Positions 3,027 through 64,000 of a DNA stretch of 64,000 nucleotides are shown piece after piece. Each line of letters begins with the position of its first letter. Within the stretch, counting starts at the first letter, position 1. Made by a program: the position numbers and the translations under genes. Origin of the DNA: Octopus vulgaris (lineage: Eukaryota); assembly GCA_951406725.2 (NCBI GenBank), contig OX597821.1, positions 64,294,001-64,358,000 of the forward strand, written 5' to 3'. A model generated the notes under the pieces. It did not search any database. It saw only the letters and a list, made by a program, of their open reading frames with translations, and was not told the DNA's origin.

Positions 3027-3642
3027 AAGGCGGCGAGCTGGCAGAAACGTTAGCACGCCAGACGAAATACACAGCGGTATTTCGTCTGTTTTTACGTTCT
3101 GAGTTCAAATTCCGCCGAGGTCGACTTTGCCTTTCATCCTTTCGGGGTTGATAAATTAAGCACCAGTTACGCACTGGGTCGATGTAATCGACTTAATCCC
3201 CTTGTCTGTCCTTGTTTGTCCCTTCTATGTTTAGCCCCTTGTGGGCAATAAAGAAATAAGAAACATTAGCACGCCAGACGAAATACTCAGCGGTATTTCG
3301 TCTGTTTTTATGTTCTGAGTTCAAATTCCGCCGAGGTCGACTTTGCCTTTCATCCTTTCGGGGTCGATTAAATAAGTACCAGTTACGCACTGGGATCGAT
3401 ATAATCGACTTAATCTGTTTGTCTGCCCTTGTTTGTCCCCTCTGTGTTTAGCCCCTTGTGAGTAGTAAAGAAATAGGTGTTTCGTCTGTCTTTACTTTCT
3501 CAGTTCAAATTTCGCCAAGGTCGGCTTTGCTTTTCATCCTTTCGGGCTCGATAATTTAAGTACCAGTTGCGTTCTGGGGTCGATCTAATCAACTGGCCCC
3601 CACCCCCCAAATTTCGGGCCTTGTGCTCAGAGTAGGAAAGAA
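3027..3642 (+). mobile_element. tRNA-derived SINE family A, three tandem modules
   Basis: Head aaggcggcgagctggcagaaacgttagc (A-box-like), B-box gagttcaaattcc, conserved body gcctttcatcctttcggggtcgataaattaagtaccag three times; many other copies in the window. Confidence 0.9.
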
Positions 3643-3929
3643 TATATTTAATCGATGTTTATTTTGTAGCCAGATATCTTCTAATATTTAATCTTTCATT
3701 TTGAGAGAATTTCCGTTTTAAGTTTAAGCTATTTTGATACCAAAGATTATAGTTTGAGATATTCTACGGAAGCTGTGTACTGTAAAATCAACATCAGTAG
3801 TTTAGTCAGAAAAGTTCTCGCAAGTAGGATGTCATTAATATTCATAATGAGTCATATTTTATCAGGGAAGGAGCAGAACTATGATGAAAGATATTCCAGC
3901 CGTGACCAATCCATGTTTGAGAGTTATAT

Positions 3930-7240: not shown

Positions 7241-7635
7241 AAGGCGGCGACCTGGCAGAGACGTTAGCATGCCGGGCGAAATGCTTAACGTATTTCGTCT
7301 GCCTTACGTTCTGAGTTCAAATTCCGCCGAGGTCGACTTTGCCTTTCATCCTTTCGGGGTCGATAAGTACCAGTTACGCACTGGAGTCGATATAATCGAC
7401 TTAATCCGTTTGTCTGTCCTCGTTTGTCCTCTCTGTGTTTAGTCCCTTGTGGGTAGTAAAAAAATAGTTATTTCGTCTGCCGCTACGTTCTGAGTTCAAA
7501 TTCTGCCGAGGTTGACTTTGCCTTTCATCCTTTCGAAGTCGTTAAATCAAGTATCTGTTGCGTACTGGAGTAGATCTAATTTACTGGACTCTTTCCCCCT
7601 AAATTTCAGGCCTTGTGCCGAGAGTAGAAAAGAAT
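7241..7635 (+). mobile_element. SINE family A, two modules
   Basis: Head aaggcggcgacctggcagagacgttagc, two B-box/body modules, terminal ccccctaaatttcaggccttgtgccgagagtagaaaagaat. Confidence 0.9.
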
Positions 7636-8358
7636 ATATTACTGTCACAGCAAGCTGCATAACAATAGAAGAAATTTACCAATAACAGGGACCGTATCAA
7701 TGCAGCGAACACTTCGATCAATTCACATAAGAAGTCTCATAATTTAGTCTTGTACGTCTCTCTCTCTAACATTTTATAGAAATTCTGTGATGGTAGCCAT
7801 CCTTATTTTGGTCGCATAAATCCAGCAGATACTATAATAAAGTAATTATCTCCGAAGCTGCTCGTTTTTCAGAGATTTAACATCCATCTGATCGTGAGAA
7901 TAATAAAGTCATCCCATCCTTAAGGAAGATATTTGTTTCTCCGTTGTATGTGTGTGTCTGTGCGTGTGTTTAAGGAGAGAGAGAGAGAGAGAGAAGGGAT
8001 GGAAAACGACGAGTGGATTTTGGGATAGATAAAGAGAAAGTGAAAGAGAAGGAGCGAAAGAGAGAGAAAAACAGAGAGGGAAGGGATCAAAAAGAGAAAC
8101 AGAAATGATAGCAAACATAGAAAAGAATGAATAAAAAGAGCTAAGACAGAGAGATATGATATAACGTATGTGTGTGTGTGTGTGAGTGTGTGTGTGTGTG
8201 AGTGTGTGTATATGCATATGTGTATATATATATATATATATATATGCACATACGCACACGCGCGCGCACAAACGAATACACACTCACACACATACACACT
8301 TATACATAATACTCCAGTAATGAGTATTTTCTTTTCTCCATGTTGGCAATCAGGTCTT

Positions 8359-11298: not shown

Positions 11299-11531
11299 AA
11301 GGCGGCGAGCTGGCAGAAACGTTAGCACGCCGGGCGAAATGCGTAACCGTATTTCGTCTGTCGTTACGTCCTGAGTTCAAATTCCGCCGAGGTCGACTTT
11401 GCCTTTCATCCTTTCTGGGTCGATAAATAAAGTACCAGTTTCGCACTAGGGTCTATGTAATCGACTTAATCCCTTTGTCTGTCCTTGTTTGTCCCCTCTA
11501 TGTTTAGCCCCTTGTGGGTAGTAAAGAAATA
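11299..11531 (+). mobile_element. SINE family A, single module
   Basis: aaggcggcgagctggcagaaacgttagcacgccgggcgaaat...gtgggtagtaaagaaat; flanked by a repeated ttactgaataa (about 11288-11298 and 11534-11544), a likely target-site duplication. Confidence 0.92.
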
Positions 11532-12783: not shown

Positions 12784-12939
12784 TGTATGTATGTATGTAT
12801 GTATGTATATGTATATATATGTATATGTTTGTATATAAATATAAGATCCAGGAATCGAGGTGTAGGTAGAAAATTAGCTTCAAGGAATCCGTACTAAATA
12901 TAGAAAGAAAACAACTTTCAGGAACATTAGTGGTTTATT

Positions 12940-13328
12940 TTTTTCTACTCTAGTCACAATGCCCGAAATTTTGGGGGAGGGGGCCAGTCTATTAGATTGA
13001 CCCTAGTGGTACTTAATTTATCGTTCCCGAAAGGATGAAAGGCAAAGTCGACATCGGTGGAATTTGAACTCAGAACGTAAAGGCAGAAGAAATACCTATT
13101 TCTTTACTACCCACAAGGGGCTAAACACAGAGAAGACAAACAAGGACAGACAGACGGATTAAGTCGATTATATCGAAGCCAGTGTGTAATTGGTTCTCGT
13201 TTTATCGACCCCTAAAGGATGAAAGGCAAAGTCGACCTCGGCGGAATTTGAACTCATGACGTAACTGCAGACGAAATACCGCTAAGGATTTCGCCAGCGT
13301 GCTAACGTTTCTGCCAGCTCGCCGCCTT
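12940..13328 (-). mobile_element. SINE family A, two modules
   Basis: Ends in ttctgccagctcgccgcctt; two ggatgaaaggcaaagtcgac...ggaatttgaactca modules. Confidence 0.9.
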
Positions 13329-13450
13329 ACATTAGTCGTTTATTGAGACGGAAGGTTGTGGATCTTTTTTGTACGGATGTACGATGAACCGCAAAAGTTC
13401 TTTTTATATTCAACAGTAGGCAACCATGGTTGCCGGGTGTGCGAATAAGA

Positions 13451-15468: not shown

Positions 15469-16311
15469 GTGTGTGTGTGTGTATGTATATATGTATGTAT
15501 ATATACATATATGTATATAAATATATATATAAATGTACGTATGTCTGTATACATATAATATATATCTTGGTTTTAATTTTTCGTGAAGCATTCGGTGAAA
15601 AGAACGAAAGCGCTAAGAAAGAACTATTCAAAATTCTGACTGCCTTACAATATTTGCACACCACTTCAAACACTACACACACACACACACACTCACACAC
15701 ACACATACACACACACACACACCACACGATAATGTTGTTTCCGAAAATGAATTTTTTATAGACCAGCTATGAGGGATCAAAAAGAACTTCGGTAAAAATC
15801 ACGGTATCCATGACCCTCGCGTCTTCGTAACAGTATCAAGGATAACAATTCCTAATATGTCCCTGAACATTCAAGAAATGGGATATGCTATGAAAGAGAT
15901 TTGACTGCTATATCAAGCAGTTCCTTTGAACTACTTCAGTCCAGAAGCAGACTCCAATAATTCAAGAAAACTAACTACGCCGTATCTAAATGTCAATAAC
16001 GAATATTTTATCAGATGTGTGCATGTTTTAAAACGTTGGTTTGATGACTTCGAAAAGGCAGGAGTCTGAATTTTCTATAATGACGAACTTTAACATTTAT
16101 TCCCCCAAACTGGTATTTTATTTTGTACTTTAGCAGCTTAGGCAGGTAAAAGAAAAACCGGTAGTCTTCCCAGCTATTATCGCTTCAATAACCGCCAGAA
16201 GACGTCATGAAAAGAAATTCTTAGAATTGATGAGTTCTGTAATGTCGGATAGTAATTCACTGAATTCAAATGCTAATCGTTTATGTGTTTGCCGCTCAAG
16301 CACGAAGACAA

Positions 16312-16322
16312 ATAATAACAAC

Positions 16323-16381
<59 letters not shown>

Positions 16382-16466
16382 TGATGATGATGATGATGAT
16401 AATAGCAGCAGCAGCAACAACAACAATAATAATAATAACAATAATACTAATAATAATGATAATAAT

Positions 16467-16527
<61 letters not shown>

Positions 16528-16571
16528 GTAGTAGTAGTAGTAGTAGTAGTAGTAGCAGCAGCAACAACGGC

Positions 16572-16606
<35 letters not shown>

Positions 16607-16680
16607 AAGAAGAAGAAGAAGAAGAAGAAGAAGAAGAAGAAGAAGAAGAAGAAGAAGAAGAAGAAGAAGAAGAAGAAGAA
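16312..16680. repeat. Compound trinucleotide array (AAT)n/(GAT)n/(AGC)n/(AGT)n/(GAA)n
   Basis: Directly visible; gives the poly-N/S/R/L/I/E ORFs. Confidence 0.97.
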
Positions 16681-16689
16681 ATGAACAAA

Positions 16690-17405
16690 TAAAAAAGAAA
16701 AACCATGGAAGGAAAAGAAAATGTACGGTCAGTTTGCAAGAGATGTGAACGCCAAGACAGATATAGAGGACCGGTGACTATGGATGAGAAGGAGTGACCT
16801 GAAGAGAAATAGAGAAGCACTCATATGCGCAGCTGTGGAAGATTCGTTAAGGACAAATTATATGAAGTGAAGAACTGACAACACAACCGATAGCAACAAA
16901 TGCAGAATCTGTGGTGAGATGGTTGAAACGCTACGGCACATCGTTATCGAATGTCCGAAAATAGCACAATGCAAATATAAAAGACGCCATGAAAATGTGG
17001 CAAGAATGATCCATTGGGAGCTCTGTGGAAATCACGGTCTACAAAGAGCAAAATCGTGGTATGAGAAAACTCCAGAATGTGTCACCGAAAATGAGAATTG
17101 CAAAATCTTGTTGGATGTAATAATCCAGAGCGATCACCCGACCAGATATCGGAAACTGGACATTGTTGTGGTGAATGAAAAACAAAGAATGTATATGATA
17201 ATCGATATAACATGCCCCGGTGATAACAGTTTCAATGTGAAAGAAGAAGAAAAAATAAACAACTATGACGATTTGAAGTGGGAAATACGAAGTTTGTCGT
17301 TAATGAAAAGAGTAGACGGGATTTCGATAGTAATTGGTACAGTTGGAAGTATCAGCACTCAAATACTAGCATGGCTGAAAAAGATCCGTGCAAGTGTGAA
17401 GGTTT
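16690..17405 (+). pseudogene. R4/Dong-like non-LTR retrotransposon 3' fragment: zinc knuckle plus restriction-like endonuclease
   Basis: Translates EALICAAVEDSLRTNYMK*...KCRICGEMVETLRHIVIECPKIAQ.KYKRRHENVA..IHWELC...KLDIVVVNEK...IIDITCPGD...KINNYDDLKWEI...IVIGTVG. CCHC knuckle, RH.. and PD-(D/E)xK-type motifs; in-frame stop upstream. Confidence 0.88.
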
Positions 17406-17499
17406 TACTATTAGTCTTATTTATGATCATCAACGATATATTGTACGGGCAGGAGTCTAGTATCTGAGAATTATGTCTGTTAAAGTTGTAATATTTCAG

Positions 17500-20580: not shown

Positions 20581-20595
20581 AAACTAACGAGGAAA

Positions 20596-20810
20596 AAGGC
20601 GGCGAGCTGGCAGAAACGTTAGCATGCCGGGCGAAGTTAGCATGCCGTTACGTTCTGAGTTCAAATTCCGCCGAGATCGATTTTGCCTTTCATCCTTTCG
20701 GGGTCGATAAATTAAGTACCAGTTGAGTACTGAGGTCGACCTACTCCCTTTGTCTGTTCTTGTTTGTCCCCTCTATGTTTAGTCCCTTGTGGGCAGTAAA
20801 GAAATAAGAA
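20596..20810 (+). mobile_element. SINE family A with internal deletions
   Basis: aaggcggcgagctggcagaaacgttagcatgccg...gtgggcagtaaagaaataag. Confidence 0.9.
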
Positions 20811-21110
20811 AAATAACGAGAAAATTCTACCGGAAGCTTTGCCTTAACAGTAGAGAGCAGTGAGCGCCTAGAAAAATTCCAGATATTCGCTGTCCAGCTT
20901 TGTTTATATACAAGAATGCTGTTGACTGTCAATAACATTCTAGTAGAAGAATAACATATATATATATATACATATGTGCGTGTGTACATGCCTCAATTCA
21001 TATAAATACGTGTGTATGTATGTGTATATATACATACACATACATGCATACATCTATATACATATAAACATAGTGGAAATAGAGTGATACAGATTATTGA
21101 TATTAAAAAT

Positions 21111-23224: not shown

Positions 23225-23747
23225 CTTGGCCAACAACCTAGACTCTCTAACCAGTTTCAGTAGAACTATGTCAGTGACCAGGTTGCAGATAGCACGGTGA
23301 AAATTTTGACAACAAGTAATACACAATTAAGTAGAGAGAATAGCACGCTGTGCAAAATGCTTAGAGGCATTTCTTCCGTTTTTTCCACTCTGTGTTCAAA
23401 TCTCGAGCTCAACCTTGGTTTTATCATTTTAGGGTTGATAAAATAAAGTACCAATCTGGTATTGGGTTAGGCGTACGCGTCTTGCGCCCAGCTCTCAAAA
23501 ATTGCTGCCCTGTAACGCAACAATGGACCGTCGTCCCGTTCAGAGAGAGTGTAGTAATCTTGGTCGTTTATACACCATGCAATCCGGGTCATCGGACTAA
23601 GGAGTCTTAATGAAGTTACAAGAAAAAGATTTTGTGTACTTATGAATGTTTAATGTGTCTTCCCCGTTGTAATCGCCTTAGTTTCGACGCACTGCCACAA
23701 AATCTTATCACTTACCAGAAAAATACGTCTCCGAAATTATCTATCTA

Positions 23748-24262
<515 letters not shown>

Positions 24263-24283
24263 ATCTATCTATCTATCTCTCTA

Positions 24284-24361
<78 letters not shown>

Positions 24362-26762: not shown

Positions 26763-28773
26763 TGATAGATTCATATATACACATACACTATTGCATAGGT
26801 CAGTCAGAAATAGTCAATAAAAAGTATATGAATGTTATACTATGTGTGTGTGAGTTTGCTTGCTTGCTTGTATGCGTGTGTGTGTGTGTGTGTGTTTGTG
26901 GGTGAGTACATAAAAAACCTGTCATTGCATCTGGTCGCGTAACGTTTCATAATACCTTGTTCAAAACTGAAGCGGGATATTACAAAACCTCTAGATTACG
27001 ACATTAATTAAGTAATATGTCGCTGAGAGGAAAGAGGGTATTTCGCCTTATTTCATTACATACACATACACACGGCCAGACTCACATACAAACATAAATC
27101 CACACAAAAATATGCATACATACATACCTATACGAATGTATTTATAAATCTTTCTCATTCTCCGTGTATGTATGTACACTCTCTATGTACACACATATTG
27201 TATAATATGTGTGTGTGAGTATGTGTGATTGTATATATCTTTAATATAAGAAATAATATATGACTGAAAACTATAACTGAACTCTGAATATTTACAGCCT
27301 TGACAATATTCGTACGTAAAAGGATACCATTTAATTACCTTCATTTTTTTATAATCTACATACACACATGCATTCCATTAGAAGCTGTGGTAACTTTCAC
27401 GTTTGGAATTTGACACTCCAACGGGATTATTCATTGGCAAATGACACGAACTGTTACAATTTTAAGCTAAGAAAATTATAGCTTTAAATCTAATAAAATT
27501 GTTATTACTTTACACATTCTAGGTATACCATTCTTCAGTGTATAAAACTGACAGGTTTTTCACATAATGAACGAAGCATCATGAAACTTGATTTAGCTTT
27601 TCAGTCGTAAAGTATCTCGTATTTTTCTTATGATCTACCACTGCTATGTCGTATGTCCAAACATTATATTGAACATTTTGTATAATAAATTAACTCCAGG
27701 AAAGCAACTCTTCAAAATTTCCTCTTTTGCAATGGTTTCCATGTTACAACTAACCTTCAAAACTCGAATTACTCATCCTCACTAACGTATTTTGTGAATA
27801 AGTCTAGCACTAGCCTACAAGAGGTCATATGCGTCCCTCTCCTTTGTTTATCAAATAAAGAAATATACACCCCAGTCTCTTTAGGTAAAAGAATATAAAT
27901 CTGCTTTACCAAAAGCATTGAGACCTAGTGAAGAAATCATTATAATATATTGGTGTCCACAGAAACGGTGTAGTATTTTTGTTATATGTGTCAGATAAAA
28001 GAAAAAAGAGAAAAATGTGTTAATGTATATAATTAAAATATCTTTCAACCTTTTCGGTCAAAGGTGATTTGTCTGAACATTTCGATTTTCGATGATTTTT
28101 CTGGCAATGGTTTATTTTATCTTACTTTTCTTTCTGTATTTCTAAAGATATTGTTTCACCTTATTCCTTATCATCGATAATATTTCTCTACTCTCATCGT
28201 TGCCCCAATGAACAATCCTTGCCTATCAATATCCTTCCAACTTCTTGATGATCGATTTTAAACATTTCCCCAGTTGCAATTTAAAAATGGATGCTACATA
28301 AATCATAGATTTTCTGTACTTAAATATTTTCCATTTGACCGATGGGCAATATTTATGAATCTAAGTTCATACATTAAAGTCAGCACTTAATCAGCACTTA
28401 TTAAATGTTACACTATCGTTTTAACTCTTTGAGATAATAACACATATAACCACCAATAACTGCCTATCGTGTCGGACCGAACTAAATCGTAATAAAATGT
28501 AACACAACATTTTATTACAATATACCACAGCATACTAAACAAAAACAATAAATTTACTATCGGATTGTACCCATGTATCTCTTAGGGCAAACATTCTCGC
28601 TGACCTATCAAGATATATATCAGGTTTGCATTGTTCATGGAGACAATCGCATATAAATCCTGACTTTATTTCTTTGTAGCTAAAACGTAACGAAAGTATA
28701 CCATAGTCAACTTGACATTTAAACACTATTTCGCTATTAGTTTTTAAAATACTTCACTCATTTTTATAATTTA

Positions 28774-29302
28774 CTAGTAGTATCGCCCGGCGTTGCTCGG
28801 GTTTGTAAGGGAAATAACTATATAAGCATTTTTAGAGAGTTATAGCAAAAAAATGCATTAAAAATGGAATAAAAAATGATGATAAATTTTTTTTTAAATC
28901 GTTGACTCAGTGTCTTCAAGCCATGAAGTCGTTGTTCTAAAAGAACGCTGGTCTCCTCGACAACGCATTACGACTTTGATTTCCTTACACTCCCTTCCCC
29001 ACAGCTTCACGAGGGAGGGAAGGAGGAGAAGCAAACAGGTGCAGCTGTGAGCGTGGACGCCAACTCCGCCGCCATCGACACACGAAAAATTATGCATTAA
29101 AATGGAATAAAAAATGATGTTAAATTATTTTTAAAATCGTAGACTCATCGTTGACGCGCGCTAATACTCAGACGGGCTCGATATGAATCACGACTATAAG
29201 ATACCCGCTTTTGGTTAAACTGCACCGCAAAATGTGGGAGGAGTTAGGAATCTAAATCGAAGGGGACAGACACTCACACAACTAGAGTTTTATATATATA
29301 GA
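28774..29302 (-). mobile_element. Non-autonomous Helitron (family H1), complete
   Basis: Minus strand starts TCtatatatataaaa and ends cccgagcaacgccgggcgatactaCTAG with a GC hairpin about 10 nt before CTAG; inserted between A and T, no TSD. Confidence 0.88.
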
Positions 29303-29747
29303 TATTTTGTAAACTATTACAAATTTTGAAGTTCGCGTTTGCTTGTTTTATATTTGCTACTAAAGTTTAGCATGTTGGTATTAAGTGTATTGCTAACTTT
29401 ATCTTCTATACTATTGCTCAAATATTGTGCGTCTTAGGCTTGTCCGTTCCCACGTATATTACACAAATTATATTCAATAAAATACACAAGAAAGCCACCG
29501 GGGCATAAACACAAAATCCACCATACAAATGGTAGTTTGTATGGTGTGTTGTACAAGCACACATATACACAGATACGTATATTTATACAAATTTACTTAC
29601 ATAGAATATATGTCAATATACTTGTATAAACATATGTATATGTATGTATGTGTACATATGTGTATATCTATATATATTATATTAATGCTCTCAGTATGTG
29701 TACATATGCTCTCTCTCTTCCTCTTTTTCTCTCTCTCTCTCTCTCCG

Positions 29748-29818
<71 letters not shown>

Positions 29819-29905
29819 TATTAGAGACAAAACCACTATTTTGCAAAACAAACAAGGAAAGACTTAATCAATACATAAAATTTTAATAAATAGTCAAAAA
29901 AACCG

Positions 29906-29948
29906 CCACTACAATTGTTTCTTGTCTTGATCGACAATCTTCAGGTGG
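29906..29948 (-). ncRNA. Minimal type I hammerhead ribozyme, mirror copy
   Basis: Exact reverse complement of 29985-30027. Confidence 0.78.
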
Positions 29949-29984
29949 ACTTCCAATTTACAAGTCAGTTTCAAATTATGAAGT

Positions 29985-30027
29985 CCACCTGAAGATTGTC
30001 GATCAAGACAAGAAACAATTGTAGTGG
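29985..30027 (+). ncRNA. Minimal type I hammerhead ribozyme
   Basis: ccac-CUGAAGA-uuguc-gaucaa-gacaa-GAAAC-aauu-GUA-gugg: intact core, 5-bp stem II, 4-bp stem I, palindromic stem III ACAAUUGU; predicted cleavage after 30023. Confidence 0.8.
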
Positions 30028-30205
30028 CGGTTTTTTTGACTATTTATTAAAATTTTATGTATTGATTAAGTCTTTCCTTGTTTGTTTTGCAAAATAGTGG
30101 TTTTGTCTCTAATAATATTTTATAATATTTTACTATAAAATTGGATTTAATCCTAAATCTGATTTTTTCCCTGTAAATTTGGATTTATTCCCTAATATTC
30201 ATTAT

Positions 30206-30270
<65 letters not shown>

Positions 30271-30276
30271 TATGTA

Positions 30277-30618
30277 TATCTGTAAATTAATATGTTACCA
30301 TTATTCTATACTCAAGATAAAACTCTGAGTTTCAGATGCCGAAGTGGAAATCCACAACACCATCTCTTCGGTTATCTGGCCATCTGAAAAACGCTATGAA
30401 AAAGTACCGTTATATAAAGGGAAATTACTGTGTTATAATTCCGCTACTTATATAAATTAAGATTAAATGTTCATAGTAAACACGTAAACATGGCTACTCA
30501 TACGCTCACATATTAATATTAATATGGTAAGATATTAATTTACAGATAAATTTCCTCAAATTTACATAATATTGAGGCCTCTTTCTTTCTTTTGTTATCT
30601 TACCGTTATTTTACCAAT
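30277..30618. mobile_element. Hairpin plus tail element in (TA)n, family P2 copy 2
   Basis: tatctgtaaattaatatgttaccat / atggtaagatattaatttacagata, with a tail homologous to 4770-4830. Confidence 0.72.
30315..30377 (-). ncRNA. Hammerhead-like motif with U4C core change
   Basis: Minus strand: agauaa-CCGAAGA-gaug(...gugga uu uccac...)cauc-u-GAAAC-ucaga-GUU-uuaucu. Confidence 0.55.
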
Positions 30619-36231: not shown

Positions 36232-36271
<40 letters not shown>

Positions 36272-36289
36272 GTGTATGTGTGTGTGTCT

Positions 36290-36543
36290 CTGTGTGTTTG
36301 TGTGTGCGTGTGCATGTGCATGTGCGTGTGTATGTGTATTTGTATGTTTGTGTTTGTCCTCCCACTATCGCTTGACAACCGATGCTGGTGAGTTTACATC
36401 CCCATAACTTAGCGGTTCGGCTAAAAGATCGATAGAACAAGTTCTAGGCTTACAAAGAATGAGTCCTGGAGTCGATGTGTTCGAATAAAGGCGATGCTCC
36501 ACCATGGCCACAGTCAAATGACTGAAACAAATCAAAGAATAAA

Positions 36544-36545
<2 letters not shown>
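36290..36545 (+). mobile_element. SINE family B 3' half
   Basis: atcgcttgacaaccgatgctggtg...catggccacagtcaaatgactgaaacaa. Confidence 0.87.
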
Positions 36546-36617
<72 letters not shown>

Positions 36618-40082: not shown

Positions 40083-40198
40083 TGTAGTGGTAAGTAGCTT
40101 GCTTACCAACCACAAGTGTCTTCTACTATAGCCTCGGGCCGACCAAAGCCTTGTGAGTGGATTTGGTAGACGGAAACTGAAAACCCGTCGTATAAATG

Positions 40199-40291
<93 letters not shown>

Positions 40292-40500
40292 TTGTGTATA
40301 TGTTTGTGTATCTCTGTTTTTCCCTCCTAACATCGCTTGACAACCGATGCTGGTGTGTTTATGTCCCCGTAACTTAGCGGTTCGACAAAAGGACCGATAG
40401 AATAAGTACTAGGCTTACAAAGAATAATTTGCTCGACTAAAGGCGGTGCTCCAGCATAGCCACAGTCAAATGACTGAAACAAGTAAAAGAGTAAAAGAGT
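40083..40500 (+). mobile_element. SINE family B with deletion in the head
   Basis: gtggtaagtagcttgcttaccaaccac|aagtgtcttctactatagcc...ggcggtgctccagcatagccacagtcaaatgactgaaacaagtaaaagagtaaaagag. Confidence 0.9.
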
Positions 40501-41848: not shown

Positions 41849-42428
41849 AAGGCGGCGAGCTGGCAGAATCGTTAACACGCCGGGCGAAATGCTTTGGCAG
41901 TATTTCATCTGCCGCTACGTTCTGAGTTCTAATTCCGCCGACGTCGACTTTGCCTTTCATCCATTCGGGGTTGATTAAATAAGTACCAGTTACGCACTGG
42001 AGTCGATATAATCGACTTAATCCTTTTGTCTGTCCTTATTTGTCCCCTCTGTGTGTAGTTCCTTGTGGGCAGTAAAGAAATATGTATTTCGTCTGCCGCT
42101 ACGTTCTGCGTTCAAATTCCGCCGAGGTCAACTTTGCCTTTCATCCTTTCGGGGTTGATTAAATAAGTACCAGTTACGCACTGGAGTCGATGTAATCGAC
42201 TTAATACGTTTGCCTGTCCTTGTTTGTTCTCTCTGTGTTTAGTCCATTGTGGGTAGTAAAGAAATAGGCATTTCGTCTGTCGCTTCGTTCTGAGTTCAAA
42301 TTCCTCCGAGGGTCTCTTTGCCTCTCAGTTTTTTGAGGTCGATGAAATAGGTACCAGTTACGCACTGGGGTCGATGTAATCGCCCCTCGCACATTTTCAC
42401 GGTCTTGTGCCTAGAGCAGATATAATTA
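41849..42428 (+). mobile_element. SINE family A, one head plus three ~184-bp modules
   Basis: tatttc(g/a)tctg(c/t)cgct modules start at about 41901, 42086 and 42269, each with a B box. Confidence 0.92.
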
Positions 42429-45843: not shown

Positions 45844-46827
45844 ATGGGACCACTACTGTTCATAATGGCCCTCTCAGACATGCCCTCAGCCACGCAGAGA
45901 GCCACGATCACAAGTTATGCAGATGATACAAAAGTTTCACAGGCAATACAGAACCCTGAGGACACTAAACACCTGCAATGTGAGCTGGACAAAATATACA
46001 AGTGGGCCGAAAAGAATAGCATGCAGTTCAATGCTGAAAAGTTTCAAGCTCTATACTATCAGCATGCAAAACTAAATGCAATACCCAATGAATACACTGG
46101 ACCCAGAGGAATAGCAATCCCAGAGGCACAATCAGTGCGTGACCTAGGTATTTACATGAGTGATGACGCGACCTTTCGTGTACATGTTGCTAAATTGGCA
46201 ATGAAATGTAGACGACTGGCCGGATGGATCCTCAGAACCTTTAGAACAAGAGAACAAGAAACCATGATGGTCCTCTGGAGGACACTTGTCCTAAGCCACT
46301 TTGACTACTGCTCTCAGTTATGGTCACCATCCAGTGTCAAGTTGATCACAGAGCTCGAGGCGATCCAACGTAGCTACACGAAGAAGATAGCCTCTATGCA
46401 GAATGTAAGCTACTGGGAAAGACTCAAAAGATTAAAACTATATTCCCTGGAGCGTAGGCGGGAAAGATATGCCATAATATACATCTGGAAGATCCTGGAG
46501 GGAGGTGTCCTGAACTTTGGCATCGAGAGTTACGCAAATGCCAGAACTGGGCGCCACTGCGTGGTGCCTAGGACTCCAAACTTGCCATCAAGATGTAGGA
46601 CAAGATTCTGTGATAGCCTGGGCTTCCGAGGCCCACAGCTCTTCAATATCCTCCCGAAGAACCTGAGAGACCTGCATGGGGTGGATGCAGATGTCTTTAA
46701 AATGAAGCTGGATCTCTTCCTGTCAGGTGTCCCAGATGAACCAACTTCACGGCAGGAGGGGCAGATGAGGGCAGCTGCATCGAACTCTCTCATGCACCAA
46801 ATGGCAGTTGTTAGAAAGCTTTCGTGA
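45844..46827 (+). CDS. 5'-truncated CR1-group LINE ORF2 (RT C-terminal half and C-terminal domain); open frame but not a translatable gene
   Basis: GPLLF, YADDTK, W...NSMQFNAEKF, VRDLGI, HFDYCSQLWSP, LEAIQR, YWERLKRLKLYSLERRRER motifs; 327 codons without a stop. The ATG is formed at the junction with (TA)n. Confidence 0.93.
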   Translation: MGPLLFIMALSDMPSATQRATITSYADDTKVSQAIQNPEDTKHLQCELDKIYKWAEKNSMQFNAEKFQALYYQHAKLNAIPNEYTGPRGIAIPEAQSVRDLGIYMSDDATFRVHVAKLAMKCRRLAGWILRTFRTREQETMMVLWRTLVLSHFDYCSQLWSPSSVKLITELEAIQRSYTKKIASMQNVSYWERLKRLKLYSLERRRERYAIIYIWKILEGGVLNFGIESYANARTGRHCVVPRTPNLPSRCRTRFCDSLGFRGPQLFNILPKNLRDLHGVDADVFKMKLDLFLSGVPDEPTSRQEGQMRAAASNSLMHQMAVVRKLS

Positions 46828-56914: not shown

Positions 56915-57629
56915 CTCGAACACACGCATGCACAAATCTGTCCACCACTACAGCTACTAACTTGTTCGCTTCACTCCCACACACATGCCTCATTAACATA
57001 CACACAATCAGACACACAAGCGCACACACACCCACACTGACCCTGTTTGCACACTTCTGCCTTAAACACCACTTTCTCTATCTCTCTCCATTTCCGCTAA
57101 GTTAGTTTTTCACTATATAACGACATACCTGCTTCTCTCGGACTCTTTTCCATTCTCCCAGGACATTTTCCCCTTTCCTCTTTCTGTCAAAGAGTTACGC
57201 TCGTAACGTTACACCCCTCGTTTTTCAATCTAAAACTTTCATTGAGCATAATACGTTGATTGAGTACATCCTTTTGACTTTTGTTGTTATCCCTCTTTTT
57301 CTTTAATTATATATATATCAAGATTTCAGTCTTGATCACAATTGTCTGAGTAACAAACATTGTGATGTTTCCGCAGCTCTATTAAAAAAACTATATATAC
57401 ATATACATATATACATATAAATGTTCTAATATCTACAGAGCCTTATTTTTTTTTTATCTCATTACGCAAAAAATTCTTATACACACACGTAGACATATGA
57501 CCATTGTTGAAATCCTTATTCGCAAAATTACCGAACCTGGAACTTAACTATGGTCTGTCTAGAGCACGTATTCAGCATTGCCTGACACGTTTGGGTCTGA
57601 ATGACACCATTAACTCATATATATATATA

Positions 57630-58024
57630 CTCTTTTACTATTTTGCCTGTTTCAGTCATTTGACTGCGGCCATGCTGGGGCACCGCCTTTAGTCGAGCAA
57701 ATCGGGACTTATTCTTTGTAAGCCCAGTACTTATTCTATCGGTCTGTTTTGCCGAACTGCTATGTGACGGGGACATAAACACACCAGCATCGGTTGTCAA
57801 GCAATGCTAGGGGGACAAACACCGACAAACAATCATACGCACACACATATATACACATATATACGACGGGCATCTTTCAGTTTCCGTCTACCAAATCCAC
57901 TCACAAGGCTTTGGTCAGCCCGAGGTTATATTAGAAGACACTTGTCCAATATGCCACGCAGTTGTACTGAACCCGGAACTATGTGGTAAGTAAGCAATCT
58001 ACTTACCACGCAACAACTCCTGCG

Positions 58025-58026
<2 letters not shown>
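57630..58026 (-). mobile_element. SINE family B, full length, short internal microsatellite
   Basis: gtttcagtcatttgactgcggccatgctggggcaccgcc...ttaccacgcaacaactcctgcgcc. Confidence 0.92.
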
Positions 58027-58088
<62 letters not shown>

Positions 58089-59851: not shown

Positions 59852-61084
59852 AAGATCTCTTTCGGCACCCTCTTTGATCTTTTTCGGCACACTCTTTGAT
59901 CTCTGTCGACACCCCCTTTGATATCTGTCGACACCCCTCTTTGATCTCTGTCGGCACCCCCATTGATCTCTGTCGGCACCCCTCTGATCTATGTCGGCAC
60001 CACTCTTTGATCTATGTCGGCATCCCCTTTGATCTCTGTCGGTACCTCCTTCGATCTCTGTCGGCACCCCTCTTTGATCTCTTTCGGCAACCCTTTGATC
60101 TCTCTCGGCACACCTCTTTGATCTCTGTCGGCACCCTCTTTGATCTCTGTCGGAACCCCCTTTGATCTCTGTCGGCACCCTCTTTGATCTCTGTCGGCAC
60201 CCCTTTGATCTCTGTCGGCACCCCATTGATCTCTGTCGGCACCCTCTTTGATCCTTGTCGGCACCCTTCTTTGATCTCTATCGGCACCCCTCTTTGATCT
60301 CTTTCGGCACCCCTCTTTGATCTCTGTCGGCACCCCCTTTGATCTCTGTCGGCACCCCCTTTGATCTCTGTGCATCCCTCTTTGATCTCTGTCGACACCC
60401 CTCTTTGATCTCTGTCGGCATCCCTCTTTGATCTCTGTCGGTACCCCTCTTTGATCTCTGTCGGTACCCCTCTTTGATCTCTGTCGGCACCCCCTTTGAT
60501 CTCTGTACAACCCCTTTGATCTCTGTCGGCACCCGTCTTTGATCTCTGTCGGAACCCCTCTTTGATCTCTGTTGGCACCCCTTTGATCTCTGTCGACACC
60601 CCTCTTTGATTTCTGTCGGCACCCCCATTGATCTCTGTCGGCACCCTCTTTGATCTCTGTCGGCACCCTCTTTGATCTCTGTCGGCACCCCCTTTGATCT
60701 CTGTCGGCACCCTCTTTGATCTCTGTCGGCACCCTCTTTGATCTCTGTCGGTACCCCTCTTTGATCTCTGTCGGCACCATCTTTTATCTCTGTAGGTACC
60801 CCTCTTTGGTATCTTTCGGCACACCCTTTGATCTCTGTCGGTATCCCTCTTTGATCTCTGTCGGCACCCACTTTGATCTCTGTCGGCACCCTTTTTAACC
60901 TCTGTCGGCACCCCTCTTTGATCTCTGTCGGCACCCCCTTTGATCTCTGTCGGCACCCCTCTTTGATTTCTGTCGGGACCTCCTTTGATCTCTGTCGGCA
61001 CCCTCTTTGATCTCTGTCGGTACCCCTCTTTGATCTCTGTCGGCACCCCTCTTTGATCTCTGTCGGCACCCCTCTTTGATCTCT
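59852..61084. repeat. Minisatellite, 21-23-bp unit (ct)ctttgatctctgtcggcaccc, roughly 55 copies
   Basis: Directly visible; copy number estimated from length divided by unit size. The unit has no stop codon on the minus strand, hence the long ORFs. Confidence 0.96.
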
Positions 61085-61248
61085 GAGGCCTTGAATGGTG
61101 TAAAGCAATCTTGTTATCAGATCTGACGTTCATCAAAACATATATTAATGAAATATTATAACCTAAGCAATGGGATACATTACCGTAAATACATTTATTT
61201 ATGCACATACACACACTGCGAAATTGGGAGAGAATATATATATATAAT

Positions 61249-61650
61249 GGCGCAGGAGTGGCTGTGTGGTAAGTAGCTTGCTAACCAACCACATGGTTCC
61301 GGGTTCAGTCCCACTGCGTGACATCTTGGGCAAGTGTCTTCTACTATAGCCCCGGGCCGACCAATGACTTGTGAGTGGATTTGGTAGACGGAAATTGAAA
61401 GAAGCCTATCGTATATATGTATGTGTATATATGTATATGTGTGTGTTTGTGTGTCTGTGTTTGTCCCCCTAGCATTGCTTGACAACCGATGCTGGTGTGG
61501 TTACGTCCCCGTTACTTAGCGGTTCGGCAAAAGAGACCGATAGAATATGTACTGGGCTTACAAATAATAAGTCCTGGGGTCGATTTGCTCGACTAAAGGC
61601 GGTGCTCCAGCATGGCCGCAGTCAAATGACTGAAACAAGAAGAAGAAGAA
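61249..61650 (+). mobile_element. SINE family B, full length, well preserved
   Basis: ggcgcaggagtggctgtgtggtaag...ggttcagtccc...ggcggtgctccagcatggccgcagtcaaatgactgaaacaagaagaagaag. Confidence 0.93.
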
Positions 61651-61999
61651 TGTAAGCATTTTCAGAGAGTTATAGCCAAAAAATAGCAAAAAAATGCATT
61701 AAAATTGGAAAAAAAATTATCGTAAATTTTTTTTTAATCGTTGACTCATCGTAGACATTTTTAGAGAGCTACTTCCCTTATATAATAGCGAAAAAATTGT
61801 ATTAAAATGGAAAAATATGATGGTAATTTTTTTTTTAAATCGTAGACTCATCGTAGACGCGCGCCAATACCCGGAAGGGCTCGATATGAATCACGACTAT
61901 AAGATACCCGGTTTTGGTTACACTGCACCGCAAAATGTGGGAGTAGTTAGGAATCTAAATCGTAGGAGACAGACACACAACTTCACTTTTATATATAAA

Positions 62000-62376
62000 C
62001 TAGCAGTATCGCCCGGCGTTGCTCAGGTTTGTAAAAGAAATAACTATAAAGCATTTTTAGAGAGTTATAGCCAAAAAATAACAAAAAAATGGAAAAAAAT
62101 GATGGTAAATTTTTTTTTTAGTTAAAAAAGGTGGAGTTGCGTCCCCTAGACAGTTTGCGGTTTGTGTTTCTGATTCTCGACCCCATGTCGAATTTATCGA
62201 TTTTTTTCAGAACTGGGGGAACTTTTCAAAATTTTCGCTGCATTAGTTTTGAATTATGACATTGGGCTATGTGTGTGTCAAGTTTCATCAGAATCGGTTG
62301 AAAGCCGTGGTCAGAGTGAGGGTACAAGCAAACAGACACACAGAAACACGCACAGACAAACTGCCGTTTATATAGA
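62000..62376 (-). mobile_element. Helitron with H1-type 3' end and a different 5' half, tandem to the previous copy
   Basis: a|ctagcagtatcgcccggcgttgctcaggtttgtaaaagaaataactataaagc ... cacagacaaactgccgtttatataga. Confidence 0.8.
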
Positions 62377-63472: not shown

Positions 63473-63672
63473 GCATTTTATTGTGCTTCCTGCACATGGT
63501 TCTATAGTGGTGTTTGCCTATGCAACACAATGCACACTGACTCCTTCAAAAATACATTTTTCCCGGGATTGGAGCACTGTGTACCACGTGTCTGATGCCC
63601 TTTGGCCAATTTGTAACAGGAAGGTCAGTAGGAAGACCGCTCTTGCACTTTAAAGACAAACTAAGCTGTACA

Positions 63673-63843
63673 GGCTCAGGAGTGGCTGTGTGGTAAGCAG
63701 CTTGCTTACCAACCACATGATTCCGGGTTCAGTTCCACTGCATGGCACCTTGGGCAACTGTCTTCTACTATAGCCGCAGGCCGACCAAAGCCTTGTGAGT
63801 GCATTTGGTACACGGAAACTGAAAGAAGCCCGTCGTATTTATG

Positions 63844-63930
<87 letters not shown>

Positions 63931-64000
63931 TGTGTTTGTGTGTCTGTGTTTGTCCCCCAACATCGCTTGACAACCGATTTTGGCATGTTTGTGTCCCCGT
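63673..64000 (+). mobile_element. SINE family B, cut by the window end
   Basis: ggctcaggagtggctgtgtggtaagcagc...ccttgggcaactgtcttc...(TA)n(TG)n...catcgcttgacaaccgat. Confidence 0.9.

Follow-up and report, generated by a model that had tools for sequence, protein, structure and literature searches.

The closest described systems to the locus studied here are the endonuclease-positive (EN+) Penelope-like retroelements (PLEs). Canonical EN+ PLE insertions carry an adjacent inverted, 5'-truncated copy and a tail of 30 to 40 bp on one end (bioRxiv 2021.04.23.441226), an anatomy described likewise elsewhere (PMC8969392). Hammerhead ribozymes occur in the pseudo-LTRs (pLTRs) of canonical PLEs and are absent from Naiads, according to the same preprint; that source also reports that insertions of Naiad and Neptune PLEs favour (TA)n, and it calls the function of the hammerhead in endonuclease-positive PLEs unclear. 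The pLTR ribozymes are minimal type I hammerheads with a palindromic helix III, found in pairs 100 to 700 bp apart on opposite strands, and the metazoan examples did not cleave as monomers and did so only weakly as dimers (PMC4209133). In another study the ribozyme requires the protein of the element, the tail is the stretch between two reverse transcription start sites, and the targets are AT-rich (PMC11167929). Head-to-head junction palindromes have been read as the result of self-priming, implying an antisense RNA template (PMC3846280). A second group of interest, the non-LTR retrozymes, consists of direct repeats of 150 to 450 bp, each with a type I hammerhead (PMC7229834; bioRxiv 2026.07.22.740005).

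The window, i.e., the whole 64-kb stretch of DNA that was analysed, is AT-rich, microsatellite-rich animal DNA, and near its middle lies a palindrome that is likely a short dead-end insertion of the hammerhead-bearing pLTR end of a PLE, with its mirror arm copied on landing in a (TA)n tract. The first-pass annotation had claimed a perfect palindrome here, and this holds: positions 29809-29953 and 29980-30124 are exact reverse complements (145/145) around a 26-nt spacer (29954-29979). A (CT)n tract (29748-29775) stands directly before a left (TA)n tract of 36 nt (29776-29811), whose last 3 letters also form the outer end of the left arm, and a right (TA)n tract of 56 nt follows at 30209-30264. 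Both tracts are presumably the target, in keeping with the AT-rich or (TA)n targets of EN+ PLEs, and within them a target-site duplication is unreadable. The left arm (minus strand) reads as an inverted, outward-reading copy of the element end without the tail, and the right arm (plus strand) as a direct, 5'-truncated copy that continues into a one-sided extension of 84 bp (30125-30208, plus strand). This extension falls inside the range, ending at 30210, that had been annotated previously, so that the choice of limit was apt.

The extension is made of two 38-nt units, alike at 27 of 38 positions (an identity reached in 2 of 1000 shuffles), and contains a 13-bp hairpin at 30137-30166. It is contiguous with the arm in other copies, as in one record of run X2 (record 21) that bridges 30093-30164. 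At the border between arm and tail (30113-30131), there is a TA-rich patch of variable length across family copies, where many of them end in (TA)n; this patch may resemble the target of the element itself.

A minimal type I hammerhead motif is present in each arm, at 29906-29948 on the minus strand and 29985-30027 on the plus strand, with the sequence CCAC-CUGAAGA-UUGUC/GACAA-GAAA-C-AAUU-GU-A-GUGG and cores at 29944 and 29989, respectively. Helix I has 4 bp (CCAC/GUGG), helix II has 5 bp (UUGUC/GACAA), and helix III has only 2 bp (AC-AAUU-GU) closed by a self-complementary loop, the cleavage triplet being GUA. Cleavage is predicted between 30023 and 30024 on the plus strand and would leave a new 5' end at 29909 on the minus strand, the same two ends that had been proposed earlier. 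The description of both hammerheads as intact needs one qualification: pair 10.1-11.1 is U-A and not the G-C called highly conserved (PMC4209133). Apart from this pair, which is G10.1-C11.1 in the PLE consensus, the motif fits the PLE alignment of Fig. S3 in that article; the Hydra row there likewise has U10.1-A11.1, along with a helix III that is palindromic and GUA as the cleavage site. The intact CUGANGA/GAAA/GUH core, the 4-bp helix I, the small palindromic helix III, the presence of two nearby motifs on opposite strands, and a fold that is predicted to favour the dimer are all shared with the hammerheads of PMC4209133; unlike them, the motif here has no clear unpaired base after A9.

A type I descriptor found only these two matches in the 64-kb window, compared with a mean of 0.07 and a maximum of 1 in 100 shuffles of 2-nt blocks; the two matches are one sequence copied and therefore count as one independent motif. 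Rfam at the gathering score gave no match over the whole window, and a search up to E 10 over 29700-30300 returned 23 weak matches, nearly all to generic hairpins and none to a ribozyme. The monomer is predicted to adopt the hammerhead fold with a probability of 0.018, and unconstrained folds that included the flanks did not yield it. Two copies, on the other hand, have as their minimum-energy fold a double hammerhead joined through ACAAUUGU (-22.0 kcal/mol), in silico agreement with the earlier suggestion of cleavage as a dimer. As the two ribozymes of the palindrome lie on opposite strands, they cannot pair within one RNA.

The first-pass annotation had overlooked that the palindrome is a member of a repeat family present in very many copies. 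At least half of 25 words sampled from the unit were present in 20 of the 24 public runs listed, which come from 12 studies under 8 organism labels and of which one is possibly the source sample; none of the runs with the unit is listed as RNA. Four of these runs (X1, X2, X5, and X17) were compared with 29803-30216 at a likeness of at least 85%, giving 15,828, 1,496, 2,369, and 34 contigs that fit the unit, respectively. Cover had the same shape in all four, with maxima over the 84-bp extension and the outer ends and a minimum at the spacer. The summed depth in X1 ran to approximately 1.5 to 2.3 million at the outer arm ends against 0.09 to 0.10 million at the spacer; depth is not copy number, and we used the shape of the cover alone. 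Such a gradient is what would be expected of 5'-truncated retroelements.

None of the 20 variant places listed for the family touches a core nucleotide. Two fall inside the ribozyme, and both keep the pairing through G.U; one of them, an A>G change in loop III, accounts for 48% (X1), 13% (X2), and 46% (X5) of the depth and gives a predicted duplex of -5.8 versus -6.4 kcal/mol. A further 11 fall within the first 30 nt past the motif on its downstream side, several of them coming from one diverged contig of X17. This pattern points to selection acting on the ribozyme of the parent element and not on the locus in the window. The A>G/T>C differences in X17, a run only guessed to be RNA, stem from diverged single contigs and are therefore uninformative on editing. 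In X17, contigs of a diverged subfamily (compared at 29849-29949 and 30032) keep the ribozyme region and differ just up- and downstream of it; their loose ends, 99 and 255 letters long, may lead into the parent element.

The spacer helps to explain how the second arm could have arisen. In other copies it continues the left arm, as the family sequence upstream of the minus-strand copy: one contig of X1 (record 5) covers 29903-29978, and one of X17 (record 11) matches 29928-29984 exactly and then departs. Since contigs run from the left arm through the spacer, the minus-strand copy is approximately 175 nt long, spacer included. It probably also includes the letters GAAGT at 29980-29984, to judge from three joints that end at 29980-29982 and a single contig with a depth of 3.4. 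GAAGT is complementary to ACTTC at 29949-29953, a 5-bp match that closes the spacer; as DNA, the interrupted hairpin is predicted at -2.7 kcal/mol, and a cDNA ending at 29984 has a predicted pair-back probability of 0.56, the median for 135 ends being 0.04.

We therefore propose a sequence of events in which the GIY-YIG endonuclease of the element would nick the TA tract, and its reverse transcriptase would copy only some 175 nt of the template, as far as a point just upstream of the ribozyme. GAAGT, at the end of the nascent DNA, might then fold onto ACTTC, 26 nt earlier, and prime the mirror copy that became the right arm. The two element ends would have been attached at two different reverse transcription start points, and for this reason, we infer, the tail is found on one end only. 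Priming by fold-back of the cDNA is our own suggestion and departs from the published antisense-template model. The ribozyme would serve the RNA of the parent element, likely as a dimer or with the protein of the element, and its doubling in the palindrome would be a by-product.

Head-to-head joints of many different kinds are seen in other copies of the family. The 15 listed out of 91 all run from a minus-strand copy to a plus-strand copy, with 15 different breakpoint pairs, and 14 of them are represented by one contig each; 12 of the 40 entries with letters between the copies add 7 further joints and one local duplication. The listed cases thus comprise 22 distinct head-to-head joints, the inverted-copy arrangement of EN+ PLEs. 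Because the breakpoints differ between copies and mostly occur in single contigs, the inversion appears to be remade at each insertion. The identity of the arms would then be due to one having been copied from the other at insertion, and conversion is not needed. Consequently, the earlier deduction of a very recent insertion or ongoing conversion does not follow: copied arms start identical, and 0 differences in 145 positions only bound the age. The 95% upper limit is 2.9 Myr at 3.6e-9 per site per year, the rate implied by a JC distance of 0.09 for 25 Myr (PMC13282606), and assuming rates of 5 to 1e-9 in the same unit gives about 2 to 10 Myr. On this reading the locus is a typical retroelement stub, whose perfect arms imply neither conversion nor a host function.

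Upstream of the ribozyme, a DNA variant represented by 15 contigs of X1 has a T-tract and AG before ATTGGAAG on the minus strand, where the window copy has AA; this base is also the point of departure of a single contig, in a run that is guessed to be RNA. In the Penelope element of D. virilis, the 5' side of helix I marks the end of a spliceosomal intron (PMC4209133). The variant and the departing contig faintly hint at a pLTR intron acceptor, and the spacer is possibly the 3' end of such an intron.

Both ends of 19 of the 22 listed joints lie at sense positions 30032-30054, so that they centre 8 to 30 nt downstream of the predicted cut, and the longer copy begins 8 to 26 nt past it. None of the 22 is found inside the ribozyme, despite a stronger predicted fold-back there (0.67 and 0.85, whereas the cluster reaches 0.39 at most). 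A uniform null never reproduced the clustering (0 of 200,000), a figure of little weight given that this null is too lenient for joints selected by depth and nearly all from one run. One explanation would be that the joints record the PLE hammerhead cutting its RNA in vivo during transposition, with the reverse transcriptase running off the cleaved end and snapping back; the window copy would then stem from the rarer case of a template neither cleaved nor spliced. We regard this as tentative and, on balance, rather unlikely. In an in vitro study, cleavage was dispensable, and RNA-seq showed no cleaved ends (PMC11167929). Stalling of the reverse transcriptase at the 3' edge of the ribozyme would explain the clustering too, as would an AT-rich palindrome near 30048-30057 or the selection of the best-supported joints, nearly all from one run. 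Were the cleavage reading true, the function of the EN+ PLE hammerhead could be tested by joint counting, given the thousands of copies in a single octopod genome. The family may be useful in itself, since fold-back centres massed just 3' of the cut in so many copies offer a purely computational test of the role of the hammerhead. The open-access literature yielded no paper describing this family, nor any on a concentration of joints near the cut.

The assignment to PLEs, which we consider likely, is drawn from non-coding hallmarks. Like the Penelope/Poseidon, Neptune, and Nematis units (PMC3846280; bioRxiv 2021.04.23.441226), the palindrome has head-to-head inverted copies, a junction hairpin, a tail on one end, an AT-rich microsatellite target, 5' truncation, and a hammerhead near the 5' end of the repeat. 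The type I hammerhead agrees with the pLTRs of EN+ PLEs, the pLTR status of the repeat being itself deduced. It differs from those units in that the copy has no ORF and in that its tail, although one-sided, measures 84 bp (2 x 38) instead of 30 to 40 bp. The order of parts also recalls Poseidon_Ac (PAc) of Anolis, in which the ribozyme is followed by approximately 100 nt, a first end point, and a stem-loop tail: from the predicted cut to the arm end there are 101 nt here, while in PAc the cut is at +26 and reverse transcription starts at +111 to +118 (PMC11167929). The PAc ORF starts inside the ribozyme, whereas all three frames of the window copy close soon afterwards. A Naiad/Chlamys-type PLE was discarded, considering that a hammerhead is present here and absent from Naiads (bioRxiv 2021.04.23.441226).

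No reverse transcriptase or GIY-YIG frame was found within the element copy, and Pfam, run on 150 of the 323 complexity-filtered frames of the window, gave no GIY-YIG and nothing PLE-like; its only matches were an RVT_1 domain of the LINE type and a weak DUF2989. Pattern scans of metagenomes (strict pattern), prokaryote genomes, and viral contigs gave no relative with flanks. A relaxed metagenome scan returned 43 loci, none with both helix I and helix II of at least 3 bp, and these were set aside as chance matches.

Non-LTR retrozymes share with this locus a type I hammerhead in a short, AT-rich, high-copy animal repeat, but they are described as direct tandem arrays yielding circular RNA (PMC7229834; bioRxiv 2026.07.22.740005). 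The unit here is an inverted pair, and no second copy of it, in direct tandem or otherwise, was found within the 64-kb window, so it was not classed as a non-LTR retrozyme. A looser relationship would be that the family is a non-autonomous element made of the pLTR only (SINE- or retrozyme-like) and amplifies itself with PLE protein supplied in trans. The cover collapses immediately upstream of the ribozyme, and the three other joints that end at 29980-29982, near 29984, suggest a natural 5' boundary and a unit of approximately 260 bp; moreover, pLTRs are reported to mobilise other sequence in trans (PMC3846280) and to have given rise to retrozymes (bioRxiv 2026.07.22.740005). However, the drop in cover is equally expected from 5' truncation combined with subfamily divergence upstream (loose ends occur behind 29957), and none of the joints listed is a tandem-type joint across the unit. 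We find this alternative improbable; its mechanism would be the same as that of the PLE stub proposed above, with a different template.

It is very improbable that the palindrome is an assembly or library fold-back artefact, because its symmetry stops at an internal boundary of the element, beyond which the left and right flanks are unlike, and because comparable head-to-head joints occur in public runs (X1, with one also in X5). The spacer, besides, is genuine family sequence. These observations outweigh the zero divergence of the arms and the fact that, among the 32 pieces listed (there are 19,838 further ones), no contig bridges the arm-spacer-arm joint of the window copy and no piece spans the whole stretch.

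A fold-back DNA transposon (a MITE of the Tc1/mariner type) with 145-bp terminal inverted repeats at TA and a captured or incidental hammerhead would account for the perfect inverted arms, the TA on both sides, and the many copies whose loose ends, at 29820 and 30113, lead from the arm end into TA-rich sequence. The centres, however, vary between copies (the 22 distinct joints), which largely refutes symmetric terminal repeats, and the 84-bp family tail on one side, the cover graded from 3' to 5', and a ribozyme core invariant among the listed variants make this origin extremely unlikely.

Octopods, to which the host appears to belong, are known for heavy A-to-I editing, and the prediction that read-through RNA from either strand would bury the ribozyme in one hairpin was borne out in silico (152 pairs, about -234 and -237 kcal/mol). 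Even so, a regulatory hairpin maintained by the host, serving as an ADAR or Dicer substrate or as a ribozyme switch and kept identical by conversion or selection, is hardly credible, as such a fold is a property of any young inverted repeat, the arm identity is accounted for by the copying mechanism, the scan of 150 of the 323 window frames contained no host exon, and the family is abundant with variable joints.

Other elements are found along the window. An open frame at 45844-46824 (plus strand) codes for 327 aa from the C-terminal part of a LINE reverse transcriptase and matches Pfam RVT_1 (E 2.7e-6). It has 507 relatives at E<=1e-40, the best named one being from Argonauta hians (60% identity), which suggests that the host is an octopod; the ESM Atlas gave generic reverse transcriptase clusters only. 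At 16871-17467 (plus strand), a 198-aa frame without a Pfam match has a CxxC...HxxxxC motif followed by a KLD...D segment, which we take to resemble the C-terminus of an R4/Dong-type non-LTR element, and a long trinucleotide-repeat tract (approximately 16134-16820) adjoins it. A GC-richer tandem array of approximately 1.2 kb (59854-61085), with copies about 87% alike at offsets near 67 nt and shorter, has long open frames on its minus strand.

We also found two dispersed SINE-like families, each with many copies at 75 to 90% identity, several of them interrupted by internal microsatellites. The first is found at 3027-3648, 7241-7640, 11299-11531, 12936-13331, 20595-20814, and 41849-42382, and the second at 23738-24319, 36232-36614, 40113-40500, 57617-58045, 61234-61646, and 63669-64000. 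Another repeat family, the third, contains direct repeats of 49 nt and is present at 61650-62118 and at 28758-29298, the latter copy approximately 500 bp to the left of the palindrome.
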